From: Candidatus Woesearchaeota archaeon
Lineage (GTDB): Archaea > Nanobdellota > Nanobdellia > Woesearchaeales > SM23-78
Direction of reading: 5' to 3'
DNA length: 64,000 nt
NCBI GenBank assembly: GCA_019322375.1
Contig: JAHWIP010000003.1
Span: 6,792-70,791 of the forward strand
Below the pieces are notes generated by a model. It was given only the letters and a program-made list of their open reading frames with translations, was not told the DNA's origin and searched no databases. Numbering within the stretch: the stretch's first letter is position 1; every line of letters begins with the position of its first letter. Made by a program: the position numbers and the translations under genes. Positions 36,300 through 57,200 of the stretch are shown here, piece after piece.

Positions 36300-36300
36300 A

Positions 36301-37442: not shown

Positions 37443-37451
37443 GGTTAAGAA

Positions 37452-38285: not shown

Positions 38286-38352
38286 GTTTGTGACAGAGCA
38301 TTAAAATACACTGAGACACATTAAAATAATAGCAAAGTTTATATACAAAGAT

Positions 38353-39081: not shown

Positions 39082-39154
39082 CAATGCTAAAATAAATTTT
39101 ATTATCATAAAATATTTAATTATTAAAAAAAATTGATTGCAAAGGTGAACTATT

Positions 39155-39808: not shown

Positions 39809-39872
39809 TAACTCTGTTAATTCTTCCCCACCGAAACAAATTTATACTTATTAAGCAAGTTTCTTATGTATT

Positions 39873-41027
39873 ATGGCTTGGATGAATAAAAAAGGCGGTG
39901 AAAGACAGATTGGACTTAGCGAACTTACGCTTTATGTGTTTGTCATTCTGCTTATAGTTGTCTTATTTATTGTTAGCTATAGGTTTATCGGAGCTTTTCT
40001 CAGAGGAGGAGTTGATAAAGACACTGAGTCTAATTTTGTGTCACTGGCAGAGAACCTTGAGTTAATGATTGAGAAAGACGCAGGGTTTGAATACCAGACC
40101 ATGATTTTTTATATGAAAGAAAAGCATTTTGTGTTTGGCTTTACATCCAAGCAGGCTCTTTCCTCTTCTCCAGCAAAGCATTTTATGCCTGAGAAATGCA
40201 ATGAGCACTCATGCCTTTGCCTGTATAAAGAACCTGATGATGTAGCAGATGACAAGCCTGTCAAGTGCATATCTTTTGGGCACAAGGTTATTTTTCATGG
40301 CTATGACTTAAAAAAAGTGTCTGCTGCTCAGCTGGTTTATCCTGACCTAGGAGCAGAGCTGGGTGCGCGTGAGCAAGGAGAATCTTATTATTTATCTGAT
40401 TATCCTGAAACTATTTCTTTTTATATAGAAGGCTTGTTTATTGGCCCTTCACTAGACAATCCTCATGACCTTTACCTGGAAAAAATAGTTGCTAATAACA
40501 GGGTGCATGTTTTTGTGACTCCTGGCCTTAAGCAGGAAATGATAGAGACAAGGATTGAACTGTTATCTCCCTGCCCTTTTGATTCTGATGAAGAATGCAT
40601 GGGCAAGAGAAGAAACTCTGTTCTGGGCAGTAATGATTATTGTTTTTATGATGAGAGCCAGGCTAAGTGCTTGTTAAAAAAAGATGTGGATGCCTGTTCT
40701 TTCTCAGACAGAATTACACAGCCCTGTCTTTGCGGCTCTACATTTATAGACCCAGACACCAGGACAGAAGAAACCTATTGTTATCAAAAATCTGATAAAA
40801 GGATTTTTGTCCTTCCATTTGACTGCGATTCAGAGGAATTAAGAGAAAAAAAATGCCTTGCTTACTGCAGGGCAATCACTGATACAGAGGACTGCGACAC
40901 AAGAGAACAGGATTACTGTGATAAAGACCCTTGCGAGTTTGCTTCTAAAGAAAAGCCGTGCGAAGTGCGCCCATTAGGCAAAAAAACTTATTGTGCTTCT
41001 TACTCAAGGGATTACAGCATGGATTAA
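39873..41027 (+). CDS. Pilin-like Cys-rich secreted protein
   Basis: MAWMNKKGGERQIGLSELTLYVFVILLIVVLFIV; about 25 Cys. Confidence 0.5.
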   Translation: MAWMNKKGGERQIGLSELTLYVFVILLIVVLFIVSYRFIGAFLRGGVDKDTESNFVSLAENLELMIEKDAGFEYQTMIFYMKEKHFVFGFTSKQALSSSPAKHFMPEKCNEHSCLCLYKEPDDVADDKPVKCISFGHKVIFHGYDLKKVSAAQLVYPDLGAELGAREQGESYYLSDYPETISFYIEGLFIGPSLDNPHDLYLEKIVANNRVHVFVTPGLKQEMIETRIELLSPCPFDSDEECMGKRRNSVLGSNDYCFYDESQAKCLLKKDVDACSFSDRITQPCLCGSTFIDPDTRTEETYCYQKSDKRIFVLPFDCDSEELREKKCLAYCRAITDTEDCDTREQDYCDKDPCEFASKEKPCEVRPLGKKTYCASYSRDYSMD

Positions 41028-41113
41028 TAATAGTTGCTTGGATTAATAATAATTATTAGTAATTGTTCTAAAAACCTAAATCTTTTTAAACTCGTTTATC
41101 AACAATTTAAGTT

Positions 41114-41596
41114 ATGAGTTTTTATGATTTTAATAACAAGAAAGCCAGGAGCATGATTGCAACTTCTTTTTATGTATTATTTGGCTTGATGCTGGGAGCC
41201 TTTTTTGTGATAGCTGTTCTTGGAAGAGTTAAGGATGCTGTTGGTGATTCTGCTTATCATAAAAAGTTTTATTCCAGGGACCTGGCCTTGCTTGTTGATG
41301 CCTTGCATGCCAGCAATGGAAAGTTTGTTGTTGATTATGATGTTAATCTTCCAGACAACATGCTCCTGGACTTTGGTCTTGAGCCTGGAGCAGTCATCTT
41401 AACAGACCGCTCTGACACACTCATGGATAACAGGCATAAAACTGCTTTTTTGTTTGGGCATAATGATTATGTAAAAATAATTCCTGTCACAATTGACAAG
41501 AACATGCTTAAATTGTTAGTGGTGGCTGATAACAACACCATTACATTTGAAGAGAAAGGGATGGATGATTTAAGTACAAATGATAAAGAGGAGTGA
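41114..41596 (+). CDS. Pilin-like protein
   Basis: MSFYDFNNKKARSMIATSFYVLFGLMLGAFFVIAVL. Confidence 0.45.
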   Translation: MSFYDFNNKKARSMIATSFYVLFGLMLGAFFVIAVLGRVKDAVGDSAYHKKFYSRDLALLVDALHASNGKFVVDYDVNLPDNMLLDFGLEPGAVILTDRSDTLMDNRHKTAFLFGHNDYVKIIPVTIDKNMLKLLVVADNNTITFEEKGMDDLSTNDKEE

Positions 41597-41629
41597 TTTA
41601 AGTATAAATGATTTAAGCAAAGAATAAGG

Positions 41630-42169
41630 ATGAGAATAATAAAAAAGAGGCTGAGCCTGAATAACAAAAAGGGGTTGGGAACTGAGGAGTGGCTTGAACT
41701 TCTGCCTTACATAGTGTTAACAGTGGTTGTAATGGTGGCTATTTTTGCCCTGATAAACCTTTTTGTTAATATTTCTGTTGATGTTAAGCCTGTTCAAAGG
41801 GAAGTTCTTTTCTACAGGCTGATGTATGCTCCTAACTCAATTATGTATATGGATAATCTTACTGGCAGGGTTCACCCTGGTGTTATTAGCTGGGATAATT
41901 TTACCAACCAGACCCTTGACAAATCTATTGCTTATGATTATGAAAGGCATATATCTGCAAAATTGATATTATATAACCTGGAAAAAGAGCCAATCAAAAC
42001 AGCTTATCTTAATGGGCTGTGGTTTAACCGCTTAGAGCCTTTGGCCAGGAGCAGGATTAAGGGTGCAGGCAGTGCAGAGCTCTACACCAAGAAAATCCCT
42101 GTTGTTTACAGGAGAAATGATGTGAACAGGGCAGGCTATCTTAAAGTTGAGATTATCATTCCAAACTAA
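41630..42169 (+). CDS. Pilin-like protein
   Basis: ..NNKKGLGTEEWLELLPYIVLTVVVMVAIFALI (KKG|LGTEE, Glu at +5 as in bacterial T4 pilins). Confidence 0.5.
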   Translation: MRIIKKRLSLNNKKGLGTEEWLELLPYIVLTVVVMVAIFALINLFVNISVDVKPVQREVLFYRLMYAPNSIMYMDNLTGRVHPGVISWDNFTNQTLDKSIAYDYERHISAKLILYNLEKEPIKTAYLNGLWFNRLEPLARSRIKGAGSAELYTKKIPVVYRRNDVNRAGYLKVEIIIPN

Positions 42170-42184
42170 CAGCGAGTGATTTGA

Positions 42185-42853
42185 ATGAGCAGTTTGATTA
42201 ATTCAAGAAAAGGCATGAAAACCATTGTGACAATATTATCAGTTGTCTTGTTAGTATTCATATTCATAATATTTATTTTTCTTTTCAGGCTTGGCGCCAG
42301 GAACAAGGCAGAAAGCATAGAATCAGATTTTTCCTCTGTAAGAACAGAGTTTTTGCTTAAAACCTTTTTAAGAACACCAGCTGTTATTAGTGATGATTAC
42401 CCTGTTGAAGACTTGTTCCCTGGCATAGGAGAAGGCATTACCAATGCAGACCTGGTATCATGGACATGTAGTAAGGATAAAGACAGGAATTACAAGACCT
42501 TGAAAAACTCAATAAACACTTTTTTTGATGAGGCATATGAAGATGACTGGGAAGCATGGATAATCTATTCTAATCCTAAAGTAAAAAAGAAGGGCTTTGG
42601 GCACAAGAGTTATCTTGAAGGGATTGAGAAAAGCATAAACCGCTTGCTAACAGCAGGACAGCTGGCTTTGCTAGCAGCCAAATCATCAGACCCAGCCAGC
42701 AGGGGATTAATCTTCAAGCTTTTTATAACTCCTTATCGTGAAGCAGGCTTTGGCTCCCAGGTGGTTCCTTGCCCAGACGGAGAACTAGCCCAGATAATGC
42801 TTTACTCCCACACAGCATTTATTGAAATAAAACACCTGAAAGGCTTAACATAA
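42185..42853 (+). CDS. Pilin-like protein
   Basis: MSSLINSRKGMKTIVTILSVVLLVFIFIIFIFLF. Confidence 0.45.
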   Translation: MSSLINSRKGMKTIVTILSVVLLVFIFIIFIFLFRLGARNKAESIESDFSSVRTEFLLKTFLRTPAVISDDYPVEDLFPGIGEGITNADLVSWTCSKDKDRNYKTLKNSINTFFDEAYEDDWEAWIIYSNPKVKKKGFGHKSYLEGIEKSINRLLTAGQLALLAAKSSDPASRGLIFKLFITPYREAGFGSQVVPCPDGELAQIMLYSHTAFIEIKHLKGLT

Positions 42854-42865
42854 GATAAAATAAAA

Positions 42866-45800
42866 ATGGATAAAGTAAAACTGAGATTAAAAAACAGAAA
42901 AGCACAGGTTTACCCGCTTTTTGTAGTGGTCTTTACAATAGTGGCCTTGACAACAGCCCTTATTGGCTTGAGCAATGCAAAAGAGGTTACTGATTTATCT
43001 GGCAGGGAAATGCTTATCGGCACCAAGCAATCAGCTGTTTTTGCATCTCTTCAAGACGCAGATGCTGTTAGTTTATTCATAGAGCAGGCAGCAGAATTTG
43101 CAGGCCAGCAAGCCCTGGATAAAATAAGAAAATCATGCTTTTTTGGAGTTGATGAGGAACAAGAAGTTGATGAGTGGGAGTCTCCATGCGGCAAGTTTGT
43201 TTATCCTCTTTGGAGCACTAATGAAAATCTTTGCCTTCCTGATTGTGAAACAGCTTTTGTCAATGCCTTTAACAAGGATTTTTTAAGCCGAACAAACAAG
43301 TATTATGAGTTCACAAACATAGAGCTGCCTATTTCTTATAACATGAGCCTGGAAATACATGACAATCATTTTTTTGTTCATGGAACCTCTGACACAGAAC
43401 TAAGGATTAATGTGGTTGATATTCAGAGCAGGATTAAGTCTCCCCTGGCAATAGCCCAGACTTATGAGGAAGGCAGGCTTATCTGGCCTGTTGATTACTC
43501 TGACCACACAATCACCTCTTGCTTTGGTGAAAGAGATGTTGTTGGGGGGAGCAAATACCATCCTGCTGTTGATATCCGGGCTCCAAAAGGAACACCAGTG
43601 CTGGCAGCTGCTTTAGGAAAAGTGATTCTTACTGACCCTTGCTGGGGAAGAATTGTTATTAATCATGGCTCTGGCTTAAGCACAGAGTATCTTCACTTGG
43701 AAAAAATTGATGTTAAGGTTAATGATGATGTGGTGCAGGGACAAAGAATAGGAACTTCTGGCAGCAATGGCTGTGACACAAGAGAGTTTGTTCCGCACCT
43801 GCATTTTGGGGTTATATATCAAGGTGTTCAGTCACCCATGCATTATAAAGGGCAGGAAATAGTTTTGAGCAACAACCATATCCAGCCCATGTGCTTGATT
43901 GAAAAAGGGTATGCTGCTAAGCCAGAAAGCAACTGCAACCAGCTTGTGAACACAGACTTAGACAAGATTTGTGAATTGTATAATCTGCCAGAAGAATTTT
44001 TTGAATCATCAGAATCATCAAAGCCATCAGAGCCATCAGAACCAGACCAAGACACTTCTTCTGAAGAAAGTGCTGATGCAGAGAATGCTGGTGCAGAAAG
44101 TGTTAATGCAGAAAGCACTGAGCTGGATTATTCTCTGGCACAGGCTCCTGGCAGCTATGCTTTTAAACCATCTTTTACCTTGAGGGTTAACAAGAAAATA
44201 GAAAACCCTATTGAGCCAGTAACAGAGTGGTTTGAGAACACCTGGAACGAGTGCGAGGATGACCCTTGGAAATGTTTAAGAGAAAAAATGAGTGAGTTTA
44301 ATGAGCAGGACTATGATTACAAGCTCATGTTTGCTGACAGGTGCGAGGAAGGCTATCACTTGTTCTATGACATACTGGAGTTTTTTGAGGACTGCTTTTC
44401 AAACCAGAAGTATGGGTGCTCATGCGAGTTTAATTTATCAGATGCTTTTTCAATAACTGACTTGCGAATAGTTTTTGACACACAAGCAAACACAGCCTCT
44501 CTTTTTTCCAAGCAGGGAGATAAGCCTGGTGATGAATATGAATTAATTGATTCATACCAGTTCTATTATGGAAGCATAACCAAGCCAGCCCCTGCTTCTC
44601 CTTATAGGTATTATGTGTATCAGCTTGATTATGATGATTATGGGGAGCTGGAAAATGCAGAGCTTATGCAAATGAAGTCATTGCTTGATGTATTTGATGT
44701 TGTGCCTTTTTTTGATTACAAAGAACTAAGACTGGCAAAGCCAGGAGAGGCTGAGCAAGGATATTTTGTGAACACAGAAACAATTCAGTGCAAGTACAAG
44801 AAGAACAAGTTCAGGCTGTGTGCAAAGCCAGCACAGGAAAGAGAAGACTTGTTCCCTATAAGGTTTGCTTTTCACTTAAAAGACAAGCCTCCTGAGCCTG
44901 TTAAAAAAGGAGATGTGGAAATTATAGAGGTGGAGGAGAGTTCTGAGTCAGATGTTGACAAGGTAATGCAGGCAGCAGGCTTTCTAGGAACCATATTCCC
45001 TCCTCTAGGCTACTTGTTCACAGCAATTAATATTCTCAGTGTGTTGGAAGACTTTAAACCAAGAAAGTTCGAGGTAATAGTTGATGTTCCTCTTGACAAG
45101 GATGGCAAACCCCTGGATGTTGCTGGCTATGAAGTTTATTGCAGTGATTACCTGACAAACATCCTGCCAGTGGATGTTTTGGATAAATATAATCCAAGTC
45201 ATTTTGTTGTGATGGCTAATGATGAGATGAATAAAAAAGTAAGCCAGCTAGACCAGTATGTTAAGAAGAACCCTTACACAGACTTTCTGAATCTTGAGAG
45301 CTGTGATGTGCCTGTGAGCAAGTTCACAGGAGAAACCATTCTTGTGCCTGGAATCAAAGGGGTTGTTAAGGACGGTAAAATGGTTTTCAACCTTCATAAA
45401 TGCGGGGACTTGGCAATAATTATAGATAAACTAATAAGAAAAGACTACTGTGTATCACTAATACCTGTTGACAAGAATGGCAACAAGATAATGGAGCATG
45501 CTGTGAGCAACTGCGCGCAAACCAATTCACTGCTTGACCTGGTTATTAGTGAGATGATAGAGGAACAGCTAGGAGAATTTATTCCTGCAAGCCTTATACC
45601 TGATAATTTAAAGCCTTATATCAAGCTGCCTGACACAAGCGATATTGTTAATGCAGTAACAGGGGAAGGCAGTTTTGACATGATAGACATTGTTAATCTT
45701 GACAAGCTGGACGCAGACATAAAAAATTATCTTGAGGAATTCGTGGTTGGAACTATTAATGAAGACATAATAGGCACTTCTGTTGTTAATTCTATTGATG

Positions 45801-46639
45801 ACTTAAAGCTCTGGGAAAAACAAACAGTGCTTAACACCCTGTCAAACCAGATAAAAAATGATGATGCAAAAACCTTGTTTGATGCCTTTGTAACAGGAGA
45901 AGGTGTTGCTGAGTCTGCCAAGCGCATGGCTTATGAAAAAGGAGTAGGATATATAGACCAGACAAAAACACCTGAGATACTTAAGGAGATAGCCAAAGGA
46001 GAAGACCCTAAAAGCCTTGCATACCAGGAACTGGTAAAAGCAGCTGAGAAAGAGCTCAGCACTGACGAGAAAAAACAGGCTCTGCTGGAGATAGCCAGGA
46101 GCAGCAGTGGAAGAGAGGTAAAAGATAAGATAATAGAAAAAGCCCTTGAAAAAGGATGCGGCGAGTCATATGGAATAAGTGCAGAGCAGGCAATCAACTG
46201 CCTTGACAATGAAGAGGTAGAAAATATTTATCACAAAGTTCTGACAGACTACAGCACACCAGACAAGGTAAAACAGTTTTTGCTTGACAAGGCAATTGAC
46301 AAGTTTGATGAAAAAACACCAGACGTGCTAAAAGAGATTGTTCTGAAAAGAGACTTTAAAGGAGCAGCAAAGGACATGCTTGAGAAAGAGCTTGACAAGC
46401 TTCCAGACGCTGTTAAGAAAGAGTTTATTACTGATATACTTGAAGGCAGGCTTCCAGATGTTGAGTACTTGCAGCAGGAACTAGTGAAAATGATACCAGC
46501 AGTAAACAATGAATATGTGAATGCCCTGCTAAAAGACGGCAATGTTAAAAACCTGATAGAATCAACCCTTAAATCAGAGATAGAAAAACAACTAGGCTCA
46601 TTCTTCTCAGATGAATGCGTGGCAATTAATAAGGATTGA
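42866..46639 (+). CDS. Giant pilin-like secreted M23 (LytM-type) metallopeptidase
   Basis: 1257 aa; N-term MDKVKLRLKNRKAQVYPLFVVVFTIVALTTALIGL; M23 motifs YHPAVDIRAPKGTPV (HxxxD) and VPHLHFGV (HxH) at about residues 230-320; acidic Ser-rich linker; long K/E-rich helical C-terminus. Confidence 0.8.
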   Translation: MDKVKLRLKNRKAQVYPLFVVVFTIVALTTALIGLSNAKEVTDLSGREMLIGTKQSAVFASLQDADAVSLFIEQAAEFAGQQALDKIRKSCFFGVDEEQEVDEWESPCGKFVYPLWSTNENLCLPDCETAFVNAFNKDFLSRTNKYYEFTNIELPISYNMSLEIHDNHFFVHGTSDTELRINVVDIQSRIKSPLAIAQTYEEGRLIWPVDYSDHTITSCFGERDVVGGSKYHPAVDIRAPKGTPVLAAALGKVILTDPCWGRIVINHGSGLSTEYLHLEKIDVKVNDDVVQGQRIGTSGSNGCDTREFVPHLHFGVIYQGVQSPMHYKGQEIVLSNNHIQPMCLIEKGYAAKPESNCNQLVNTDLDKICELYNLPEEFFESSESSKPSEPSEPDQDTSSEESADAENAGAESVNAESTELDYSLAQAPGSYAFKPSFTLRVNKKIENPIEPVTEWFENTWNECEDDPWKCLREKMSEFNEQDYDYKLMFADRCEEGYHLFYDILEFFEDCFSNQKYGCSCEFNLSDAFSITDLRIVFDTQANTASLFSKQGDKPGDEYELIDSYQFYYGSITKPAPASPYRYYVYQLDYDDYGELENAELMQMKSLLDVFDVVPFFDYKELRLAKPGEAEQGYFVNTETIQCKYKKNKFRLCAKPAQEREDLFPIRFAFHLKDKPPEPVKKGDVEIIEVEESSESDVDKVMQAAGFLGTIFPPLGYLFTAINILSVLEDFKPRKFEVIVDVPLDKDGKPLDVAGYEVYCSDYLTNILPVDVLDKYNPSHFVVMANDEMNKKVSQLDQYVKKNPYTDFLNLESCDVPVSKFTGETILVPGIKGVVKDGKMVFNLHKCGDLAIIIDKLIRKDYCVSLIPVDKNGNKIMEHAVSNCAQTNSLLDLVISEMIEEQLGEFIPASLIPDNLKPYIKLPDTSDIVNAVTGEGSFDMIDIVNLDKLDADIKNYLEEFVVGTINEDIIGTSVVNSIDDLKLWEKQTVLNTLSNQIKNDDAKTLFDAFVTGEGVAESAKRMAYEKGVGYIDQTKTPEILKEIAKGEDPKSLAYQELVKAAEKELSTDEKKQALLEIARSSSGREVKDKIIEKALEKGCGESYGISAEQAINCLDNEEVENIYHKVLTDYSTPDKVKQFLLDKAIDKFDEKTPDVLKEIVLKRDFKGAAKDMLEKELDKLPDAVKKEFITDILEGRLPDVEYLQQELVKMIPAVNNEYVNALLKDGNVKNLIESTLKSEIEKQLGSFFSDECVAINKD

Positions 46640-46755
46640 TAAAGCTAATTCTTGCAACAAAAAGCCCATCCTGTGAATTATCCGGCTCTACTATGGAAAA
46701 GTTTTTAAAAAACCCCTCAGTTGTTCTTTTGAAAGAGTTATTAGGGTGGTATTTA

Positions 46756-48078
46756 ATGATTAACATGCCTTTAGAACAGATTAAGAGCAGGATTTCTGAA
46801 AAAACAGGCTTGTCAGATGAGGAGCTGGATGACAAGATTAAGGCTAAGCTTAAGCAGTTGTCAGGGCTTATTTCTGAGCAAGGAGCTGCTCATATAATTG
46901 CTAATGAGCTTGGTGTGAAGCTGTTTGAGATTGGTGAAAAGCTCCAGATAAAAAATGTGTTGACTGGCATGCGCAATGTTGATGTTGTTGGCAAGATACT
47001 GCAGAAATACGAGCTTAGAGAGTTTCAGACAGAAAAGCATTCTGGAAAGGTTTCTAACATGCTCATAGGTGATGAGACAGGTGTTATTCGTGTTGTTATG
47101 TGGCACAAGCAGGCAGAGAATATTAATAGTGTTAAAGAAGGAGATGTGGTCAAGATAAGAGGTGGCTATGTAAGGGATAACCAGGGCAGAAAAGAAATTC
47201 ATCTGAGCGAGCTCTCAAAATTCATTATTAATCCTCCTGGTGTTGAAGTAGAAGCAAAGCCTTATGAGCGCCCTGTTGCTGTTAGAAAGAGCATTGCTGA
47301 TATAAAAGAAGATGATGCTAGTGTTGAAATCTTAGCCACTATTGTGCAGGTGTTTGATATAAACTTTTTTGAGGTGTGCCCGCAGTGCAGCAAGAGGATA
47401 AGGCTTGGGGACCAAGGCTTTTTATGCCCGACCCACAGTATTGTGGAGCCGGATTATAATTATGTATTAAACCTTTACCTTGATGATGGAAGTGATAATA
47501 TAAGAGCTGTTTTCTGGAGGCAGCAGGCAGAGCAACTATTAGATATGGACAAATCCAAGGTAATGGTTTTTAAAGATGACCCTGCCAAGTTTGAGCCAAT
47601 AAAAACAGAGCTCCTGGGAAATATTATTTTGGTGAGTGGAAGAGCTAATAAGAATCAGAACTTTGACAGGATTGAGCTGGTTGCTAATAAGATTGACAAA
47701 AGCCCTGACCCTGATGAAGAGATAAAGAAGTTAAAACAAGAAGCAGACAAAGCAGTTGCGCAGGATGAAGGTGGGGATGAAGAGCAACAGAAATCGAAGA
47801 TTTCTGAGGGTTCCTACGGAACCGAAGAGGAAATAAAGCAGGAAGTAGCTGGTGGGGATGAAGAGGAAGAGATTAAGCAAGAGGAAGTAAAGGCAGAGGA
47901 AATTAAGGAAGAAGAACCTGTTGAAGAGGAAGTAAAAGAAGAAAAAATAGAAGAAGAGCCTATTAAAAAGAAAACAAAAGAAAAAGAAGATTCATTGCTC
48001 GCTCGCCAAGGCTCGCGAGAAAGCCAGGATGACTTAGAAAACCTTGACCTGGATAAAGAGTTAGAGGATATTGAGTGA
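46756..48078 (+). CDS. rpa: Replication protein A (RPA) with OB folds, Zn-ribbon and acidic repetitive tail
   Basis: LISEQGAAHIIANELGV.., NVDVVGKIL..GDETGVIRVVMWHK (OB fold), CPQCSKR..CPTHS Zn ribbon; start set at MINMPLEQ (ORF-track start 46636 overlaps upstream gene). Confidence 0.7.
   Translation: MINMPLEQIKSRISEKTGLSDEELDDKIKAKLKQLSGLISEQGAAHIIANELGVKLFEIGEKLQIKNVLTGMRNVDVVGKILQKYELREFQTEKHSGKVSNMLIGDETGVIRVVMWHKQAENINSVKEGDVVKIRGGYVRDNQGRKEIHLSELSKFIINPPGVEVEAKPYERPVAVRKSIADIKEDDASVEILATIVQVFDINFFEVCPQCSKRIRLGDQGFLCPTHSIVEPDYNYVLNLYLDDGSDNIRAVFWRQQAEQLLDMDKSKVMVFKDDPAKFEPIKTELLGNIILVSGRANKNQNFDRIELVANKIDKSPDPDEEIKKLKQEADKAVAQDEGGDEEQQKSKISEGSYGTEEEIKQEVAGGDEEEEIKQEEVKAEEIKEEEPVEEEVKEEKIEEEPIKKKTKEKEDSLLARQGSRESQDDLENLDLDKELEDIE
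47995..48023 (+). repeat. GC-rich palindromic element copy A (TTGCTCGCTCGCCAAGGCTCGCGAGAAAG), in-frame in RPA tail
   Basis: Matches 12297-12323 (minus) over 26 nt and 61421-61447 (minus) at both arms. Confidence 0.8.
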
Positions 48079-48091
48079 ATTAAAAATGTAC

Positions 48092-50200
48092 TTATCTTAC
48101 AACCCTGTCAAGACCAGCTTTTATAAAGGGCTCTTTTAATTTGTTTAATGCTTTTAATTCAATCTGTCTTATTCTTTCCCTGGTAACTTTGAATTCTATA
48201 CCAACTTCGTCCAAGGTATGGAAATTATACTTACCAATTCCAAAGCGCATGTAAAGAATTTTAATTTTTCTTTTACGGTCAGGATCCTTTTTAAAAGTGT
48301 CATGGATAACTTTTCTGACCTGATAACCTACTAATGATTGTGCAGCAGCATGTTCAGTATCAGCTTTTGGATCCTCAACAAGCTCACCTATTTCAACCTC
48401 TACTTCTTCTCCTATTGTTGTTGATAGTGAGATTGGTTTTTCAGCCCATTTTTTATACTTCTCAACTCTTTCCTCAGCAACATTCATTTCTTTAGCAACT
48501 TCTTCTGTTGTTGGCTCTCTGCCTAACCTGCCAAATAATTTCCTGGCAATTCCCAAGTACTTGTTTATTTTTTCCACTGAATGCACAGGAGTCCTGATAG
48601 TCCTTGCCTGGTCTGCTATAGCCCTTGTTATTGACTGTTTAATCCACCAAGTAGCATATGTTGAAAATTTATACCCTCTTCTGTATTCCCAGCTGTCTAT
48701 TGCTCTTAGAGCTCCCATGTTTCCCTCCTGAATCAGGTCAGTAAATTCCATACCCCTGTGCTGGTATTTTTTTGCTATACTCACAACCAGTTTTGTATTT
48801 GAACTTGCAAGCTCATTTTTGTTAGATATAAGCTCATCATGAAGCTTTTCTATTTCAGGGCTAACAGGGTCAAGATGAGGAAATATTGATTTGTAAGTTT
48901 CATAAGTTTTTTTCCAGTATTTTTTTTTGAATTTAAGTTTGCTAAGAAGCTTTTTCAGTGCAAAATCTCCTTTTTCTTTGGCATTATGAAAGTTCTCTAT
49001 AAATTCTATTTTTTCCCGAGCAGTCTTCTCATAACCTTTCCAAAGTCGTACTATTTCATCCGGGTGATTTATTTTAATAGCCTTTTCTATATCTTTTACA
49101 ACATAATCAACCAGGCATTCTGGCTTCTTATTGTCGCCTTGCAGGGAGCGCTCTTCAGACAATCCATTGTACAAGAAATTCCTGCTCTCAATTGTTTTGA
49201 ACTCATTAAACAGTTCTGTTAAGTATTTTGTTACAAACAAGTATTTTCCTAGAAAAGATTTTAGGGCTTTCTCCCTTCTTTTCTCAGCCTTTTCAAACTT
49301 TTTTTTGAAGACGTTCACATCTTCACAACAAATAATATCTTCAAGGTCTTTTCCCTTGTTTTCAAGGGTTTCATCCAAGCTTTCACCATGTTTTTTATTC
49401 AAGGCTTCCTGGGCTTCCAGGGCTTCATTAATATCCTTTCTTATTTTATTTAAGATATATTTTTTCTCAATAATATGCTTGAATATTTCTTCTCTTTTCT
49501 GCTCTATTTTTTTTCCAAAAGCATATTCCTGCTCTCTTGTTAGCAAGGCGTGCTTGCCCATGGAACTTAAAATAAAACTTGTTTCACTGCCAATATATGT
49601 CTTTCTCAAGTCTACTTTATCCTCCTCAAGGTCAGAGTACTCTTTTATCAAGAACTTATAATTATCATTAAAAATCTTATTTTTGTTTTCCAGAGCAGTT
49701 CTGTGCATGTCAAGAAGCAAGTTATAATAGAACTTTCTAACATCTGCCCTGTCATATTTTTTTCCATAGTCTAACTTAACAGGGTCGACATACCTGCTTA
49801 GTATAATGTCATGTTTTTTCATGTATGGGTCTCCGAATTCTTTTGGAGTCTTGGTTTCAATCTCTCTTTTTTTTTGCATCAGGTATGCCATAAATCCCCT
49901 TAACGAGATATAACTGTCTCTGTTTATATAGTCCAGGCAGAAAAAAGGATTTTTCTTAGCAAGCTTGATAAGAGCGCTGTTTTCAATATGAAATACTTTA
50001 GCAAGGTCAGCTGTTCTGAGCCTTTGGGAGTATCCAACTTCTTGTTTTAGAACAGAACCTTTTTGTATCAGGTCAAGAAAGAATTTTGAATCCATCTCTA
50101 TGTTTTCCCAGACAGAGGCTCCGAATTTTTCTTTGATTTGAGCAGGGCGCAGGTATATACCTTTGCTCTCTTCTAGAAAAGCATGGGCTGCTTCTTGCAT
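48092..50200 (-). CDS. Bacterial-type primary sigma-70 family factor homologue (regions 1.2, 2, 3, 4 present)
   Basis: [17 protein letters not shown] (region 1.2); [76 protein letters not shown] (regions 2.1-2.4, near-identical to RpoD consensus); ..[38 protein letters not shown] (region 4 HTH). Confidence 0.8.
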
Positions 50201-50266
50201 TTTACTTTTTCACATAATTTAAAATATGTTTTAAATATATTTAAAATAATATATTCATATTTATTT

Positions 50267-52498
50267 TTAAACAATTTGGTATTCTTGCCTTACCTTCTTG
50301 TTTTTTTCAATGATAGGGATGAGCTGCTCTACAGCGCTTTTATGAAAAGCCTTTAAGTAGGTGTCTGTTGATGTCATTTTTAAGAAAGGAAAATCAGGGT
50401 CTGTGCTCATTCTGCTAAGCTGTTTGGGCTGAATCCTCATGCCAGTTGCTTCATATATATAATTTGAAGCTTGATGCACTCCAATTGTTTCTTTCTTGTC
50501 TTTTTTTATTAGTTCTATTTTTTCATCAAAGAACTTGGTAATAAAGATTTCTTCAAAACCGTTTTTTACAAGATAAACAGGCATGGTATTGCCTAGTTTT
50601 TCTATGTAGCTTATTTTCTTTTCAGGGTTATTGAACTCGTATCTTCTGAGATTCTTGATTAGTTTGGTTTCTATATGCTGGAACCGGGTTACACTTGTCC
50701 TTGCAAAGTTCTCTCTTATTATCTCAACCAGAAGTTTGTGCCCCCTAATTTTCTGAAGAATTTCAATTGCTTCAGCTCCCTTGTAAGTTTCGCTTGGTCT
50801 TTGATTAAAGAGACCTGCTTCTGCAAGCCTTCTGAAAACCAAAAGATTTCTTCCAGTGATTTCTGAAAGTTCTGACCCAGGGTACAGCCTTAAAGGATAA
50901 ATCTCTAGCATGTCTGGCCTGGTTTCAAGCCTTAAATCACCAATGCCTTCAAAAATCTGGGCAAGAGTCCTGCTGTTTTTAGATATAAGATTGTCATCTT
51001 CTTCAAAATACATTTCATCCAGCATGTCTATGAAACGCTTCATACCAAACTCTTTGAACTGCTCTGCTCTGTGCTTTGCAATAGCATACCCACAGTCCCT
51101 GCGAAATTCTGCTTTGAGGTGAGCCAAAAGATTTCTATCATCCTCAATTCTTTTTTCCTTATTTATGTAAATAACAGCACCATCTTCCTCTGTTTCCATA
51201 TATTTAGCAAAAGGGCCGGAAACTGATGGTTCTGCCAGCTCAATTTTAGTTTTTTTGTCTAATCTTTTTTCAACCCAGTCTGTTGCTTCTTTAAGAAAAT
51301 TTCTTAGCTTTGCTTCTTCTTTTTTTTCCTGCTCTCTCTTTATGTTTGTATAGATTCCGCGAGCAATATTTTTTATATGACTTTTTAGTTCTAAAAGCTC
51401 CTCAGTCCCTTTTTGTATGCGCTGCTTGTCAAATCCAAGATCTGGCTTTAATGATTCTACTTCTATAAACCCATATGTGCGTGCTGCAAAACCCAGAGCC
51501 ATTTCTTCCAGCTTGACAATTCCTCCTTCGCCCAGGGTTCTTCCAACCACAAGATGAATTCCACGCACATCCTTTTCTATTGTTTTATGCGGAAGATAAT
51601 ATATATGCCCTCTAATAGGACCGCATTTTTCTAGGGCATCCTTGATTTCATAAACAATTGCTTCTTTTGGAATAGGGGTTTCTATCTCTATATCATTCAT
51701 TTTTACTCTAAAAGCAGGGCTGAGCTGGAGTGCAAACTTTTGTTTAATCAAATCAGCAAGCTTGTCTGTTTCAATTGTGATTTTTCCTTTTTTAGAACCC
51801 AAAGGCTTCATAATGATTTCTGTGCCATGTTTTTTTTGGTCAGTTATTCTTTCTTCACTATAACTAACCTTTCCCCATAAGCCCTGATTAATTATTTTTT
51901 CTAAAGAACCATACTCTTCCTCAACATCCTCTATAAGCAGACTGGTGTTTAACTCAGGTATGGTGTGAGGGGATTCTCTTTTATCAAGAACTCTTTTGAC
52001 AATCCGCTCAATATATTTATCTTTTTGCTTCTCATTAAGATTCATCTCTTCAAACTTAGGGCTGGTTAAGATGGAGTGCTGAATGGTTTTTCTTACAAAC
52101 ACCTCTTTGGTATGATATTTTTTTCCTTTTCCTTTTTTTACTGTGCTCATTTGATAGCCAAAACAAAGGTATCTTATGAACTCCTTGCCTACTCCTGCAT
52201 CACCTATTTTTAGTCTTCCAGTGCGGGTTCTGGGGTTAAGCTTCTTAATATTAGTGCCATAAGTATTGAAGTGCTTAAGGTCTTCAAGATTCATGCCTTC
52301 CCCATTATCTCTTATGAGAAGACTTTTATTTTTATCATCAATTATTATTTCCACAAGAGGAGCATCTGCATCCCAGGCATTATCAATGCCCTGTATTATT
52401 GCTTCATAAGGGCTTAGAAATAGGGATTTGCCAAGATTCTCATGAAACTCTTTTGAGATTCCTCTCCTTACTTTAACAGTTTTCTTTGTCATCAACAC
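50267..52498 (-). CDS. GHKL (Bergerat-fold) ATPase, MORC/TopoVIB/MutL-like N-terminal domain, large C-terminal region of unknown function
   Basis: YEAIIQGIDNAWDADA (N box), LIRDNGEGM (G1), RTRTGRLKIGDAGVGKEF (G2 GxxGxG followed by K); 743 aa; 66 bp upstream of sigma gene on same strand. Confidence 0.6.
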   Translation of the reverse strand: MLMTKKTVKVRRGISKEFHENLGKSLFLSPYEAIIQGIDNAWDADAPLVEIIIDDKNKSLLIRDNGEGMNLEDLKHFNTYGTNIKKLNPRTRTGRLKIGDAGVGKEFIRYLCFGYQMSTVKKGKGKKYHTKEVFVRKTIQHSILTSPKFEEMNLNEKQKDKYIERIVKRVLDKRESPHTIPELNTSLLIEDVEEEYGSLEKIINQGLWGKVSYSEERITDQKKHGTEIIMKPLGSKKGKITIETDKLADLIKQKFALQLSPAFRVKMNDIEIETPIPKEAIVYEIKDALEKCGPIRGHIYYLPHKTIEKDVRGIHLVVGRTLGEGGIVKLEEMALGFAARTYGFIEVESLKPDLGFDKQRIQKGTEELLELKSHIKNIARGIYTNIKREQEKKEEAKLRNFLKEATDWVEKRLDKKTKIELAEPSVSGPFAKYMETEEDGAVIYINKEKRIEDDRNLLAHLKAEFRRDCGYAIAKHRAEQFKEFGMKRFIDMLDEMYFEEDDNLISKNSRTLAQIFEGIGDLRLETRPDMLEIYPLRLYPGSELSEITGRNLLVFRRLAEAGLFNQRPSETYKGAEAIEILQKIRGHKLLVEIIRENFARTSVTRFQHIETKLIKNLRRYEFNNPEKKISYIEKLGNTMPVYLVKNGFEEIFITKFFDEKIELIKKDKKETIGVHQASNYIYEATGMRIQPKQLSRMSTDPDFPFLKMTSTDTYLKAFHKSAVEQLIPIIEKNKKVRQEYQIV

Positions 52499-52676
52499 CC
52501 CCCGCGCCCCTCTGTTTTGCTACTGAATAATAGATATTTTATTTAAACCTTTCTATTTTAGAGACACAGATTTGACAGATAATAATTGCAAGCCATGTTT
52601 ATATACTTTACTCAGGGATGTCCAGTGCCTATTTTAGAAAATTTTTTAAACTACTGTTCTTATACCATATACTAGA

Positions 52677-53210
52677 ATGCCTAAAAAAAAGGATTCAAGC
52701 CCTGTTTTTGAAATATTCGTTGTTCTGGCCATAGTAGCTATTGTGGCTGTTACAGGACAGGTGCTGTTGCGTTATGAAAACACAGGCAGTTCTGCCAATG
52801 CTATTACTGGCTTTGCAGTTGCTGAGTATGAAGAGGAAATGGTTGAAGAAGAATTTCTTGATGTGGGTGTAGATGATATAAAGGTTAATCCTCCAAGCCC
52901 GTTAATAGGAGAGCCGTTTGAAATCAGGGTGATAGTTGCTAACAAAGGCTTTGTGGAGATAAACACTCCTTTTTATGTGCAGGCAAAACTAATACCTAAT
53001 GCAGAGAATGTTAAGCCCACGCTTCTCAACAGCGTGATAACCCAGATATTAAAGCCAGGAGAAACCTCAACAGCTGTTTTCAGGATAGCAACAGTAACAA
53101 AGGAAGGTCCTATGAAGATAATAGCAACAGCTGATTCTACTGCCAAACTAGGAGATGATAATCCTTCAAATGACCAAAGAAGCAAAACAATTATATTAAC
53201 CAATCAATAG
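52677..53210 (+). CDS. CARDB-like adhesion-domain protein with N-terminal membrane anchor
   Basis: N-terminal TM; IKVNPPSPLIGEPFEIRVIVANKG..LGDDNPSNDQRSKTIIL typical of CARDB. Confidence 0.5.
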   Translation: MPKKKDSSPVFEIFVVLAIVAIVAVTGQVLLRYENTGSSANAITGFAVAEYEEEMVEEEFLDVGVDDIKVNPPSPLIGEPFEIRVIVANKGFVEINTPFYVQAKLIPNAENVKPTLLNSVITQILKPGETSTAVFRIATVTKEGPMKIIATADSTAKLGDDNPSNDQRSKTIILTNQ

Positions 53211-53223
53211 ATTATTTCTTAAA

Positions 53224-53682
53224 ATGATGTATATAACCCATATGGCAGTTGCATTATTTGCAGGGCTTTTAAAAGTAAAAATAATCCCTTTGCCCATAAA
53301 CAAATATGTTTTTCTATCAATCGTGGTGGTATCAGCTCTTCTGCCAGACATAGATTATGACTCATTCATAGCCAGGAAACTAAAACTAAGATTTGTGCGT
53401 TTCTTTTTTGCACACAGAGGCTTTTTCCACAGCATCCTGCCCATGGTATTCTTTATGATACTAGCCTTTTTAATCACAGGCAATCCTTACTACTCCTTAG
53501 CTGTTCTGATAGGCTTTGGCTCCCACCTGGCCTTTGACAGCATAACCATGAAAGGAATAGCATGGTTCTGGCCAAGCAAACTAAGAGCAAAAGGCCCCTT
53601 AAAAACAGGAGGAATAGTAGATTGGATACTGCTGTTAGTATTTATACTAATGGATGCAGTGATGGTGGTGGTTGTTTTCTGA
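53224..53682 (+). CDS. Membrane-bound metal-dependent hydrolase-like protein (YdjM/DUF457 family)
   Basis: LPDIDYDS..HRGFFHS..GSHLAFDSIT motifs in 4-TM protein. Confidence 0.5.
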   Translation: MMYITHMAVALFAGLLKVKIIPLPINKYVFLSIVVVSALLPDIDYDSFIARKLKLRFVRFFFAHRGFFHSILPMVFFMILAFLITGNPYYSLAVLIGFGSHLAFDSITMKGIAWFWPSKLRAKGPLKTGGIVDWILLLVFILMDAVMVVVVF

Positions 53683-53739
53683 ATTGGTTATTTTGAAGAG
53701 AAAGAGTTAATAAAAAAAGAAATAATTTATAATTTTAAC

Positions 53740-54135
53740 TTAATAAAGATAGTCCGGAGTTCCCCAGTACCCTCCGCAGCCTTTACAAGCAGATTCTGAG
53801 CTACATGCACGGTTATACTTGCAGCATCCAGGAGTTTTTCTTGAAGTTGCATAACAAAAACATGTCACCCGACCACAATGAGGATCTCCCCCGCCAGATT
53901 CCATTGGCTTTCCCACCACGTTTTCTTCTTCCATTACTTCAGAAAGCATGTCATATTCCTCATCAGTAAGCCCAGACACAACATATGCCTTTTGTAATTC
54001 AGGTTCAGATGTTGTTGTAATTGTGGCTGCCTCTTCCCCTCTATTCATAAACATAACTACTATTGCCACTATGGCTACTATTGCTACCATTGCTATTAGT
54101 GCGAATAAGTAGTTGCCTTTGTCTTTTTCTGCCAT
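53740..54135 (-). CDS. Small secreted Cys-rich protein
   Basis: N-terminal TM (LFALIAMVAIVAIVAIVVMF) then 12 Cys in 45 aa. Confidence 0.4.
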   Translation of the reverse strand: MAEKDKGNYLFALIAMVAIVAIVAIVVMFMNRGEEAATITTTSEPELQKAYVVSGLTDEEYDMLSEVMEEENVVGKPMESGGGDPHCGRVTCFCYATSRKTPGCCKYNRACSSESACKGCGGYWGTPDYLY

Positions 54136-54264
54136 TTATTCACCTCGTTTTGTTGAATATAAGCTCTTTATTTTTGTTTTTTGGTTTGGGTTTATAAAAA
54201 GCTTTCGCAGGAATAAGCCACAAATTAGTTACTACTTTAGAATGGATAACATATTTAAATGTAG

Positions 54265-57200
54265 ATGTTTTCCTGGGCTTGTATGGCACAATCATCCATG
54301 TTTATTGGCAAGTTTGAATTTGAAGGGCCAGGCTCACACCTAACCATGACTCTTTGGCAGGGTAACAAGGCTTACCAGTTCTCAACTAATTTCATAGGGG
54401 TTTATCCTAATGACCAGACCAAGCTTAAGAAGAAAAAAACCATTTGGCCTGCAAGCAGGGAAAAAAAGATTTCTCTTGAAAAAATACTTGTGGAACAGGG
54501 CTTGGAAAAATCAGATTCTTTTGATATAAAACAGGGAGAATACGCCTTTGATATAATAGACAAAAGAATTGTGCAGCTTTTTCTGGATAAAAGAGATTAT
54601 GACAAGCTTCCGGAAGAAGCAACCAATGAGCTGATCACCTGCCACACTCAAAGCATGAAATGGGATTTTGGAATCATGCAAAAAGCAGAGATAGAGTCCT
54701 GGTTGTTAAAGATACTAAAGGAAAAGAGCAAGTTAGACCAGGAAATTGATTCCTTGTACAAGGCAATGCTCAGGACCAATAAGAAACAATTAACAGGTTC
54801 ATTAGATGATATAACGAGTTTTATTAAAAAAGATTATCATAAAGATGACTTTGATAAAAAAATTATTCCTTTGCTTTTTGAAAGCATTGGGTACAGATTT
54901 AAACAACAAGAAGATAAAAATTTATTGATTCACCTATTTCAGCAGACCAGGTATTCTTTTAAGCACAAGCATCATTATATTAATGCACAGAAAAAAGTGT
55001 TTGAGCCTTTAGACATAGAGATTGATTACCCTAAATTAACAGACAAGAAAAATGATGCTTATTATAAAAAGATATTAAAAAAGCCTTTTGGCAGAAGATT
55101 TCTTGAAAACAGCAAGCAGGTGCTTGGTGAAAAAGGCATAGATGCAATATTTTCCAAAGATAAGGAGATATACATCCTTAAATCAGAGCAGGAAGAATTG
55201 TTTAATACCTTTAAGAGACTGCTGAGCCATAAAGCAGAGTATCCTGATGTAGAGGACTATGTGGAGAGCATAAAATACCAGCTGGAAGACTTGTTCTGCA
55301 GAGTACAATACTTTAATCTTCACAGCAAGACACGCAAAGACCTTAGGAAGCTGGTTAAGGAAAAACTAGAAGAAATAGGGGGCGAAGAGAGAGACAAAGA
55401 TAATTTGAATTATGATAAAAAGATTTTTGAACGTGCACAAAGACTCAGGCAAAAAAAGCAGGACTTGGAGAGCAGGATTAAGCAGATAAAAAGCTCCAAC
55501 ACCCTGAAGTATGACTTTGACTACCAGAGAACAATGCTCTTTCTTGACATAATGCACAGGCATCCTGAAGTAAAAGGAGATGATAAGCTTAAAAAAAAGC
55601 TTAGAAAAAAGATTTATTTTGAAGGAATAAAACCAAAAGGAATGATTAATGAGCATGAATGGCTTGACCAGACACCCAGTGTTTTCCTGGACATAGAAAA
55701 ATTTCAGTATGGAACACCAGAAGAGGTTATTAATGCAATTATATCTTCTGTAAGAAGAGTAGATGGAGAATACATAGGGCGGATAGATACTGATATTGAT
55801 TCAGGAGAAAAAAATATTCTTGGTTTTCAAATAAAACACCACCATAATAATATGAACCTGATGCTATCCTCTGCTGATTTTATTAATCCAGAAAGATGCT
55901 ATACTTACTTTACCCAGGGCGACTATGATTTTAAGCATTTAAGCAAAACCAGGCTTTTTAGGACTGGCAAGGAAAAAGTGATTGTTCCAAGGCAAAAGGT
56001 GCATGAGGAGTTTATCAGGCGTTATGACATACCAGGCGTATCTATTAACACAGTCACGCTTGCAAAAATAATTTGGCCTCACCTGCTTAATCACAGATTA
56101 GCAACTCTTGTCAACAAATTATATCAAAAAGAAGGAACAGAAAAAGTATTTGAAAAATCATTTGACTATGAAGAATTAAGAGAACAAGCAGGGTTGGCCA
56201 AAAAAGGAGATAAAGAAAAAGCTTATGACATACTATATTATGGAGGGGATGATGTTGATAAACCATTCAAAGCCTGGCTTCATCCAAAAGCCAGATACAT
56301 CTTTAAAGACCTGCTGGAAGTGTGCAACACCTTTGGCATAACACCTGACCAGGCAAGCTCTAATGCTAACACAGCAGCCCATCTTTTTGAAAAAAGATTT
56401 TATGAAAAATCCGGAGGCATACTCTCTCCAGGCATCTTTAGGCAGAAACACCAGGAATTGGCCAAGGAGTTCAGAAACAAATATACTGAGTACAGAACCA
56501 AACATTTGCTAGAGCAAGGCCTGAAAATAGATTTTGAAAGAGGAGTCCAGGACAATGTCAGCCAGCTCTACTTTTCTCCAGAACTGTTCATATGCAAAGT
56601 GCTTTACCCTGATTTTCCAGGAGTAAAAGCCTTTGTTGACAGAACCATGCGCATGAAAAACCCTGAAAGAAAGGTCAGCAGGCTGCAGTATGTAAAACCC
56701 TTTGTGGTAAGCATGCTAACAGATTTATACGGAATTCATAAGATACAAGACGAGATAAAAGTGCTTGAGAAAGAAAAAGCTGAACTTCTTGAGGAAATAA
56801 GAGGAATGCCTGAAAGCCAGGAAAAACAGTCGGAAAAAGAACAAAAAATAAAGGCTTTTGGAGGGAAATGGGAAAAAATCATTGACAAATTAATAAGCAT
56901 GAATAATAAGAAGTATTTCTTTGGACAACTATTCGGAGTTAAATGCGAAAAAGTAGAGGAAAGAGTACAGCAGGCATACAAAACAATAGCAGATGTAATC
57001 AATGAGAATGATATTCATCCCTTGCAAATAAAAGGCAACTTTATCTATGCAAAAGAAAATCTTCCTGACAAGGTGCTGAGAAAAGCAGGCTTGTTCAGGA
57101 TGAGGAATATGCGAATATTTAATATGCAGAAAAATGAACTCACTTTTCATGCAGAAGACCAGTACGCAGGCTACCCGCCCAGGCTTGACCGCCCGGGTTT

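Follow-up and report, generated by a model that had tools for sequence, protein, structure and literature searches.

A conserved gene pair of a MORC-like GHKL ATPase and a remodelled RpoD-type sigma factor in DPANN archaea

The gene pair and its locus

The window analysed here is a stretch of 64,000 nt from a Candidatus Woesearchaeota archaeon (assembly GCA_019322375.1, contig JAHWIP010000003.1, positions 6,792 to 70,791). Its minus strand carries two consecutive genes. The first encodes a MORC-like GHKL ATPase of 741 aa (50267..52492), which was assigned by Pfam (PF13589, E 1.1e-11), an AlphaFold2 (AF2) model and Foldseek. The second is an ATG-started open reading frame (ORF) of 702 aa (48092..50200) encoding a sigma-70 protein with a family-specific N-terminal domain and Pfam matches to regions 1.2, 2, 3 and 4. 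The original prediction, made from the sequence alone, had singled out the sigma gene and left out its co-oriented upstream neighbour; the sigma gene is not a lone gene. NCBI holds an identical protein under the name 'sigma-70 family RNA polymerase sigma factor [Candidatus Woesearchaeota archaeon]', and the three peptide strings quoted in that prediction are all present in the 702 aa translation.

The sigma family comprises seven lineages, which were obtained by adding cluster members to the clusters of a HMMER search (see below) and are labelled as the window, L001/2/4, L005 and L011, L006/L007, L008/L009, L090, and L091. In every lineage a gene of ~720-756 aa with a HATPase_c_3 domain lies directly upstream of the sigma gene in the same orientation. 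The gap ranges from 2 to 66 bp: 66 bp in the window, 10 bp in L001, 16 bp in L005 and L011, 2 bp in L006/L007, 40 bp in L008/L009, 31 bp in L090 and 5 bp in L091. The upstream genes of L090 and L091 are truncated by the contig ends and represent the same partner (hhalign probability 100%, E 9e-46). Apart from the pair no gene is common to all loci. The neighbours are RPA, RadA, YdjM and a giant M23 protein in the window and in L008/L009, RPA and RadA in L001, IleRS, aEF-1beta and Trm1 in L005 and L011, Fic genes, an integrase and two long (intron-like) tRNAs in L006/L007, and the archaeal exosome superoperon with RpoK in L090 and L091; CARDB and other genes occur as well. As a background control we used ~106 loci that had been fetched solely for encoding a related GHKL head; they stem from a metagenome scan whose matches were mostly generic heads of this type. 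None of them has an ORF with sigma regions 2-4 within 5-6 kb, whereas all loci of the family have one. The partner family is as narrowly distributed as the sigma family, both are confined to the same lineages and their divergence is of similar depth. A mirror-tree analysis of co-evolution was uninformative, the Pearson correlation of 0.84 being driven by one close pair (Spearman -0.14).

Some loci show individual features. In L004 (2190-4390) the partner is split into ORFs of 426 aa and 315 aa while the near-identical L001 has it in one piece (733 aa), which reflects either an assembly frameshift or a recent pseudogene. L006 carries two tRNA genes (14251-14356 and 14509-14629) that Rfam matches end-to-end over 106 nt and 121 nt while ARAGORN misses both; hence they probably contain introns. 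They are followed by a phage-type integrase and a NikA-like gene (14691-15970), and the operon in this locus adjoins two Fic genes and what may be an integrated element. In L090 (3396-7755) and L091 (3103-5486) the sigma gene is convergent with the genes for RpoK/Rpb6, Rrp41, Rrp42, Rrp4, SBDS, proteasome alpha and Rpp14, such that its nearest neighbour encodes an archaeal RNA polymerase subunit.

The operon is predicted to be transcribed from a canonical archaeal promoter with B recognition element (BRE) and TATA box. The promoter and 5' region of the window (52497..52552, minus strand) contains a BRE-like AAAGG, the TATA box TTTAAATA (52547-52540), a conserved element ATCTATTATTCAGTAGCAAAA downstream of the TATA box (52535-52515) and a Shine-Dalgarno-like GGGGGGTG. 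The BRE/TATA arrangement is also found upstream of the ATPase gene in L001, L005, L006, L008 and L011. In five lineages a BRE-like AAAG is followed by TTTAAATA or TTTATATA, and the Shine-Dalgarno-like motif is GGGGGGTG or GGAGGTG. A 21 nt element, ATCTATTRTTCAGTAGCAAAA, is near-identical in the window, L001 and L008, whose proteins share only ~30% identity, and is weaker in L005/L011 and L006. It may be an operator or an element of the transcription start or 5' untranslated region. About 60 nt further upstream follows GCACTGGACATCCYTGWGTRAARTATATAAA, another conserved block, which probably serves the divergent CARDB gene as promoter. The AT-rich spacer of 66 bp between partner and sigma gene (50201..50266, minus strand) contains TTTAAATA as well and may hold an internal archaeal promoter; the spacer measures 2-40 bp in the other lineages.

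By composition the pair fits its surroundings. The GC content of the sigma gene is 0.355 within a window range of 0.32-0.42, the leave-one-out codon-usage likelihood gives z-scores of +0.82 for the sigma gene and +0.52 for the ATPase gene, and the tetranucleotide correlation across the locus amounts to 0.94-0.96 with no break. The sigma stop codon is located 13 bp from the stop codon of the convergent archaeal RPA gene (46636-48078), and in the sister species L002 both genes overlap by 18 bp. An orthologue with 53% identity is present in three other assemblies, where the GHKL gene is followed by the sigma gene, convergent with RPA and with RadA nearby. The GTDB representative metagenome-assembled genome DAOWFR010000042.1 (L004) exhibits a matching GHKL-sigma-RPA-RadA arrangement; the scan of genomes that led to it yielded no species other than that of L001. 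The synteny of the locus recurs in several species, with assemblies from ENA, Logan, JGI and NCBI. A misassembled or mis-binned bacterial fragment within an archaeal contig, in favour of which nothing speaks except the bacterial ancestry of the sigma domain, would have to account for the continuity of all three compositional signals, for RPA at a distance of only 13 bp, for the archaeal promoter and for the synteny in assemblies of several species; we consider its probability practically nil. A recent transfer was rejected as well, given the native codon usage and the orthologues of only 27-54% identity which keep the synteny. No break in GC or codon usage of the kind that would betray a chimera was found, and the original view of a long retained gene holds.

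The archaeal context claimed at the outset was confirmed gene by gene: besides RPA the window contains RadA (62038-63063, above the equivalog cut-off), an HMf-type histone (14765-14983), Hjc (15660-16067), archaeal NAC (30635-30976), Sec61-beta/SecG (30993-31160) and the tRNA-splicing endonuclease EndA (12980-13825). TrmB was also verified on the contig. The description of the sigma gene as lying between RPA and RadA has to be narrowed: RPA is the convergent direct neighbour, the two stops being 13 bp apart, and RadA is ~11.8 kb away. An archaeal RNase P RNA is found at 32269-32573 (121 bits), and ARAGORN predicts no tRNAs in the window.

Taken together we are highly confident that the pair is a native operon, passed on vertically within a narrow group of Woesearchaeota/Nanoarchaeota (DPANN) and consisting of a MORC-like GHKL ATPase and an RpoD-type sigma70 in which a family-specific domain with a predicted winged-helix core replaces region 1.1, and preceded by a BRE/TATA promoter.

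A few further observations concern the neighbourhood. RPA has a long acidic low-complexity C-terminal tail ending in DLENLDLDKELEDIE, which is common to the sister species (L004 6486-6740). A conserved protein of ~90-104 aa is encoded directly upstream of RadA (window 61757-62029, plus strand) and near RadA in the sister species (L004 918-1232); it carries KKFKAGAISA[ST]IWENQ…FDR.YKDANGEWQKTNSLR. At the start of the window (26-9744) ten consecutive ORFs of 136-621 aa on plus and minus strand are all without Pfam match, and the codon usage of the first (26-1891) deviates more than that of any other ORF in the window (z -3.07).

The sigma protein: RpoD ancestry, a new N-terminus and preserved DNA contacts

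All Pfam matches of the sigma protein exceed the gathering thresholds, and all coordinates given here refer to the minus strand. Region 1.2 comprises residues 211-237 (49490..49570; PF00140, 24.8 bits at a cut-off of 22). It is followed by a non-conserved region (NCR, residues 238-460, 48821..49489) that lies inside a single-stretch alignment of residues 210-692 to the model PRK05658. Region 2, which in sigma70 contacts the clamp helices of RNA polymerase and recognises and melts the -10 element, spans residues 466-534 (48599..48805; PF04542, 73.9 bits). Region 3 including the extended -10 residues and the 3.2 finger spans residues 543-616 (48353..48574; PF04539, 71.5 bits), and region 4 with the helix-turn-helix for -35 recognition residues 647-690 (48131..48262; PF04545, 51.2 bits). 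The order of region 1.2, a non-conserved region and region 2 is that of group-1 sigma factors. Region 1.1 (PF03979) finds no match in the protein by Pfam, while most bacterial RpoD matches carry it. The 'complete set of sigma-70 regions' announced in the original prediction is thus right for 1.2, 2, 3 and 4, and region 1.1 is replaced.

The protein passes the test for the sigma-70 superfamily (TIGR02937, 90.2 at a cut-off of 42.9). Its best NCBIfam match is the RpoD model PRK05658 (339 bits, residues 210-692 against 123-620 of 631 model positions), though all RpoD equivalog cut-offs are missed: PRK05658 with 339 of 555 bits, PRK09210 with 285 of 572 and RpoD_Cterm with 283 of 354. The label of a full-length group-1 sigma therefore does not stand. 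In solved structures residues 461-692 match E. coli sigma70 (376-602, E about 1e-69 to 1e-70), followed by primary sigmas from many bacteria. Regions 2-4 show 50-56% identity to RpoD of any phylum. RpoD models fit all members of the family best (best E 4e-103) and MzaA models fit them more weakly. These comparisons support the descent of the gene from a bacterial RpoD-type sigma, as had been claimed. The top matches are RpoD of Aminicenantes/Acidobacteriota, and these groups were considered as donor lineage and dropped: RpoD of Firmicutes and Proteobacteria is equally close (regions 2-4, 50-55%), hence no donor is claimed. In sum the ORF is a real, intact and native gene but not a complete group-1 sigma.

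In place of region 1.1, which is auto-inhibitory in sigma factors, the protein has a domain of ~205 aa (residues 1-205, 49586..50200) that was delimited by HMMER and AF2 and has no relative in Pfam or PDB. A word-indexed search with residues 1-460 in 5.8 billion proteins returned only the window protein and one orthologue, and an exhaustive HMMER search with residues 1-205 in 1.84 billion cluster representatives five further clusters. The domain is found only at the N-termini of sigma proteins (6 clusters in the HMMER search). Its carriers among the further clusters have 619-734 aa and each also contains Sigma70 r2, r3 and r4. The AF2 model of the sigma protein is poor overall (predicted local distance difference test, pLDDT, of 52); residues 60-116 of the N-domain are confident (pLDDT 77-87), and besides them only parts of regions 3-4 are usable. 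The predicted order of residues 60-116 is strand-helix-helix-strand-strand-helix, from which we infer that the core of the domain may be a winged helix-turn-helix of the excisionase/MerR-like kind. A module common to the N-domain and the partner was rejected (BLASTP E 0.6 or worse, hhalign probability 0.1%).

In a neighbor-joining tree of 227 columns from regions 2-4 the seven archaeal sigmas form one clade with 99% bootstrap support, so the DPANN homologues do group together in the phylogeny that the original prediction had proposed. The tree contains 27 bacterial RpoDs including E. coli, Enterococcus and Sphingomonas, and has long branches and thin bacterial sampling. Independently of the tree, a single origin of the family is supported by the N-domain fusion and the partner gene, which are both shared. 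On the tree columns the identity is 0.28-0.60 among the archaeal sigmas, 0.38-0.58 between archaeal and bacterial sequences and 0.70-0.83 among bacterial sequences across phyla. Judged by these identities, the archaeal clade evolves much faster than bacterial RpoD.

The roles of individual residues of sigma70 and of GHKL proteins are well established. Conservation in the sigma was evaluated at residue level in E. coli numbering, which was confirmed by direct alignment, for 8 sequences from the 7 lineages. The family is ~30% identical overall. D403, L404, G408, G424, F427, T429, Y430, A431, W434, Q437, R441, R451, P453, V454, H455, E458, T583, E585, R586, R588, Q589, I590 and E591 are invariant in all lineages, and R584, W433, Q406 and E407 are kept in 7/8 sequences. 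The window sigma itself keeps Y425, F427, T429, Y430, W433, W434, Q437, T440, R441, R451, H455, E458, R584, E585, R588 and Q589; a pseudo-sigma with lost melting residues, which the original prediction had considered, is not what is found. The contact residues for the -10, extended -10 and -35 elements are nearly all invariant across a family of such low overall identity, which argues for selection on the sigma. The gene is hence supported as a genuine, long-resident archaeal gene under selection. Mean pairwise identity in the family is 0.49 in region 2, 0.52 in region 4 and 0.47 in region 3.2, compared to 0.29 in the N-domain, 0.20 in the NCR and 0.16 in the linker of regions 3 and 4.

We further determined retention, i.e. 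the share of positions invariant in the 27 bacterial sequences that the archaeal sigmas keep. The DNA-contacting subregions 2.3 (0.82) and 4.2 (0.78) rank highest and the subregions contacting core polymerase lowest, namely 4.1 (0.51), 3.2 (0.55), 2.1 (0.62) and 2.2 (0.68). Promoter-DNA recognition is thus the most strongly preserved property. The surfaces for polymerase contact have drifted or been re-tuned and are still not erased.

Two polymerases come into question for such a sigma. The protein might initiate transcription by the RNA polymerase of the archaeon itself and direct it to a subset of promoters in place of TBP/TFB, with the ATPase as regulator or loader. Its docking sites on the archaeal enzyme would be the clamp coiled-coil and the flap, both universally conserved. 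D403, L404, Q406, E407 and G408 are kept in region 2.2 and S506, G512 and the GDF(I) motif in the 3.2 finger, whose identity of 0.47 contrasts with 0.16-0.20 in the linkers; the strongest point in favour of this docking is how well the finger and Q406/E407 are conserved. Moreover the archaeal enzyme is the only multisubunit polymerase expected in the cell, the archaeal RpoK gene adjoins the operon in L090 and L091, and regulation beside TBP, TFB and TFE was raised as a possibility by Castelle et al. (PMC8204110). On the other hand such a use is without precedent, the bacterially invariant core-contact positions are the least retained (4.1 0.51; 3.2 0.55), RpoK is convergent with the operon and not co-transcribed, and the operon itself has a BRE/TATA promoter.

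The genomic DNA does not favour this role either. TTGACA/TATAAT-like motifs had been suggested for a scan by the original prediction, and strong bacterial-type promoters turned out not to be enriched. Loose sigma70-type matches (66 vs 59±7.5, 70 vs 58±9 and 79 vs 52±7.4) are not convincingly in excess and mostly intragenic, and none that is strong lies next to a gene start. Altogether we consider the use of the own polymerase unlikely, though it is the main rival of the role that we favour below; if true, it would be the first sigma-dependent transcription in Archaea. As a separate observation, window positions 40001-60000 contain 39 terminator-like sites of hairpin plus T-run vs 16.2±4.3 in shuffles and 79 loose sigma70-like matches vs 51.8±7.4. 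Both excesses are limited to this part, lie mostly within genes and are possibly compositional.

Alternatively the sigma could act on the bacterial RNA polymerase of a partner or prey and redirect the core as phage sigmas do. The archaea would in this case be parasites or predators of bacteria, and the sigma would either be transferred into the bacterium or work on material obtained from it. Its promoter-recognition residues are of housekeeping type, hence it would read ordinary bacterial promoters. Genes for peptidoglycan hydrolases are located near the operon in the window and L008, and predation on bacteria was proposed for Woesearchaeota with large murein hydrolases (PMC9723730). In the window these are an N-acetylmuramoyl-L-alanine amidase (Amidase_2, 37452-38285, plus strand) and a protein of 1257 aa with M23 peptidase domain (42866-46639, plus strand). 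The surrounding co-oriented block (33235-46639, plus strand), mostly without Pfam matches, lies directly beside RPA and the sigma operon. Its counterpart in L008 (13532-22072) is one protein of 2846 aa with M23, SLT and Amidase_2 domains beside the operon. Several points speak against this reading: neither protein of the pair has a signal peptide or hydrophobic N-terminus, L005 and L090 carry the operon without a nearby hydrolase gene, and the obligate MORC-like partner would be left unexplained. The divergence of the core contacts also goes beyond what RpoD tolerates (0.38-0.58 to bacteria vs 0.70-0.83 between phyla). We therefore think that an action on bacterial polymerase is improbable. 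Among the window ORFs scanned Pfam detects no RNA polymerase subunits.

More generally, the conserved 3.2 finger and region 2.2 residues leave room for a machine of domesticated primary sigma and MORC-like ATPase that engages a multisubunit RNA polymerase, be it archaeal or that of a bacterial prey or host, which to us seems unlikely on balance. If an archaeal or prey polymerase is engaged, this would matter for the question how transcription initiation evolved and how DPANN symbionts exploit their partners.

The partner ATPase

The AF2 model of the partner (pLDDT 68.6) displays a GHKL head, a beta-rich, possibly S5-like middle domain and C-terminal helical, winged-helix-like modules, as well as a long helix of 48 residues (364-411). 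The top Foldseek matches are the ATPase modules of MORC3, MORC2 and MORC4 (E 4e-12 to 1e-10), followed by Hsp90/TRAP1, SMCHD1 and MutL. An S5 transducer after the head is suggested by ~400-420 columns aligned to MORC modules at low TM-scores (0.2-0.37) in a model of pLDDT 68.6. In PDB sequence profiles the partner matches MORC2 and MutL. By NCBIfam the head is assigned to BbrUII/HgiDII restriction enzymes (best E 3.8e-24), and the family matches MzaB weakly (6/9 members, best E 2.6e-5). By these matches the head belongs to the class found in conflict systems. In the conserved neighbourhood of the partner we found no restriction-modification or other conflict genes; the sigma gene is its only invariant neighbour.

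The GHKL motifs N38, D41-A42-D43-A44, D62-x-G64-x-G66-M67 and G97...K103 are invariant. The catalytic Glu of motif I (N-4, residue 34, at ~52391-52393 in the window) is replaced by Gln in the window, L001 and L005/L011, i.e. in 3/5 lineages, while L008 and L006 retain Glu. For such cases ATP binding with slow hydrolysis is predicted from the E-to-Q/A mutants of GyrB, MutL and Hsp90. The partner of the Gln lineages might by analogy be an ATP-binding switch with impaired hydrolysis.

A GHKL protein encoded beside a sigma factor calls to mind the anti-sigma factor kinases of the SpoIIAB/RsbW type, which would sequester the sigma. The GHKL fold is common to both sides, and the partner gene lies beside the sigma gene just as in those systems; Castelle et al. 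(PMC8204110) found no classical anti-sigma factor. The partner is however five times larger (741 aa vs ~150 aa). It matches HATPase_c_3, MORC and MutL, with a putative S5-like domain, and not HATPase_c_2, and it bears DNA-binding-like modules. SpoIIAB/RsbW also have a cognate STAS antagonist, whereas no anti-anti-sigma (STAS) gene is present at any locus. An anti-sigma kinase is thus very improbable.

A proposed role and relation to known systems

Initiation by sigma factors is a defining trait of Bacteria, while Archaea initiate transcription with TBP, TFB and TFE. A sigma that was maintained for long in an archaeon hence asks what sigma can do outside its native machinery, and the MORC-like operon partner changes the functional question. 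We propose, with a probability of roughly 0.4, that the remodelled sigma acts together with the MORC-like ATPase as the subunit which recognises and opens DNA. The sigma moiety would have given up its housekeeping role in initiation and been kept as a sequence-specific module for recognition and opening of DNA, whose intact 2.3, 2.4, 3.0 and 4.2 surfaces would read -35/-10-like motifs. Dombroski et al. are said to have found in 1992-93 that sigma70 without region 1.1 binds promoter DNA in the absence of core. Lacking region 1.1, the archaeal sigma may likewise read DNA independently of core RNA polymerase. It could then target or cooperate with the ATP-dependent, MORC-like DNA clamp that is encoded upstream, and the pair might in this way regulate, compact or survey DNA. 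The stable place of the operon in the core genome points to a resident function in regulation or chromatin and not to a mobile defence island.

Several points weigh against this proposal. The region 3.2 finger, which has a known role only inside RNA polymerase, is conserved like regions 2 and 4 and far above the linkers. Together with Q406 and E407 of region 2.2 this indicates that some polymerase contact may still be under selection. In lineages with the Glu to Gln exchange ATP turnover of the partner may be slow or lost. Motifs similar to -10 and -35 elements are abundant in the AT-rich genome (~65-80 loose matches per 20 kb), which makes the target specificity of the sigma uncertain. The analogy to the Mza system is one of domain content only.

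According to PMC9523054, which cites Gao et al. 2020, the bacterial anti-phage system mzaABCDE includes MzaA, described as sigma factor, and the ATPase MzaB; an account of the mechanism of MzaA/MzaB was not found in accessible literature. In function MzaA and MzaB are the closest analogue of the archaeal pair. Both pairs combine a long sigma-70-family protein with N-terminal extension and a GHKL ATPase of the MutL/MORC class. This parallel suggests that sigma and GHKL may be a recurrent functional module. One might go further and see in the archaeal pair an anti-virus defence of the Mza type in minimal or degenerate form. MzaA models match the sigma (174 bits in PADLOC, 279 bits for NF041931 in NCBIfam), weak MzaB matches occur in the partner family as described, the GHKL head resembles restriction-enzyme ATPases, and L006 lies beside integrase and Fic genes. 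Yet 279 bits compare to a cut-off of 800, the NF041931 alignment covers only model positions 316-704 and leaves the sigma N-domain unaligned to the MzaA N-terminus, and RpoD models outscore MzaA in all 8 sigma members. PADLOC gives no MzaB match for the partner, and MzaC-E components (Z1, AIPR and others) are absent from every examined neighbourhood. The archaeal pair also has reversed gene order and resides in stable core-gene contexts with long-term synteny rather than in defence islands. Membership in Mza was therefore rejected, and a degenerate defence system of this type appears improbable as well. A tblastn search of plasmids for an MzaA sequence returned only RpoD. 'rpoS' sigma-like genes have been reported in DPANN viruses. 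The viral contigs contain neither a full-length partner nor the N-domain, and a viral origin was rejected given the absence of the pair.

That sigma-70 genes exist in archaea was already known: Castelle et al. 2021 (PMC8204110) reported them (fam00359) in DPANN with prevalence in Woesearchaeota, ruled out mis-binning and detected no anti-sigma factor; the mechanism was left open in their study. Their genes very probably belong to the same or an overlapping family, although the equivalence to fam00359 could not be confirmed; neither fam00359 nor 'sigma' occurs in two supplementary files. These files and the main text mention no N-domain, no GHKL/MORC partner and no conservation at residue level. 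Likewise neither the N-domain nor the GHKL partner is described in the literature found on MORC, sigma and archaea. This analysis adds the remodelled N-terminus, the constant MORC-like co-gene and the DNA-reading residues that are kept better than the polymerase-contacting ones. These three features turn the puzzle of the archaeal sigma into a two-protein system that is testable for complex formation, the DNA bound and polymerase contact.

Compared to RpoD/SigA the archaeal sigma has regions 1.2, NCR, 2, 3 and 4 in the same order and identical -10, extended -10 and -35 determinants. It differs by the novel domain of ~205 aa instead of region 1.1, by a host without known bacterial core polymerase, by faster evolution and diverged core-contact surfaces, and by the constant MORC-like co-gene. 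The partner in turn resembles the MORC and paraMORC GHKL+S5 ATPases described by Iyer, Abhiman & Aravind 2008 (PMC2292703) in its GHKL head, which carries the motifs N-x-x-D-A-D-A, D-x-G-x-G-M and G-x-x-G-x-A-K, and perhaps in an S5-like domain behind it. It is set apart from them by the linkage to a sigma gene and by its own C-terminal helix and winged-helix-like modules. Eukaryotic MORCs are recruited by DNA-binding adaptors, similar to the targeting of the partner that we propose for the sigma.

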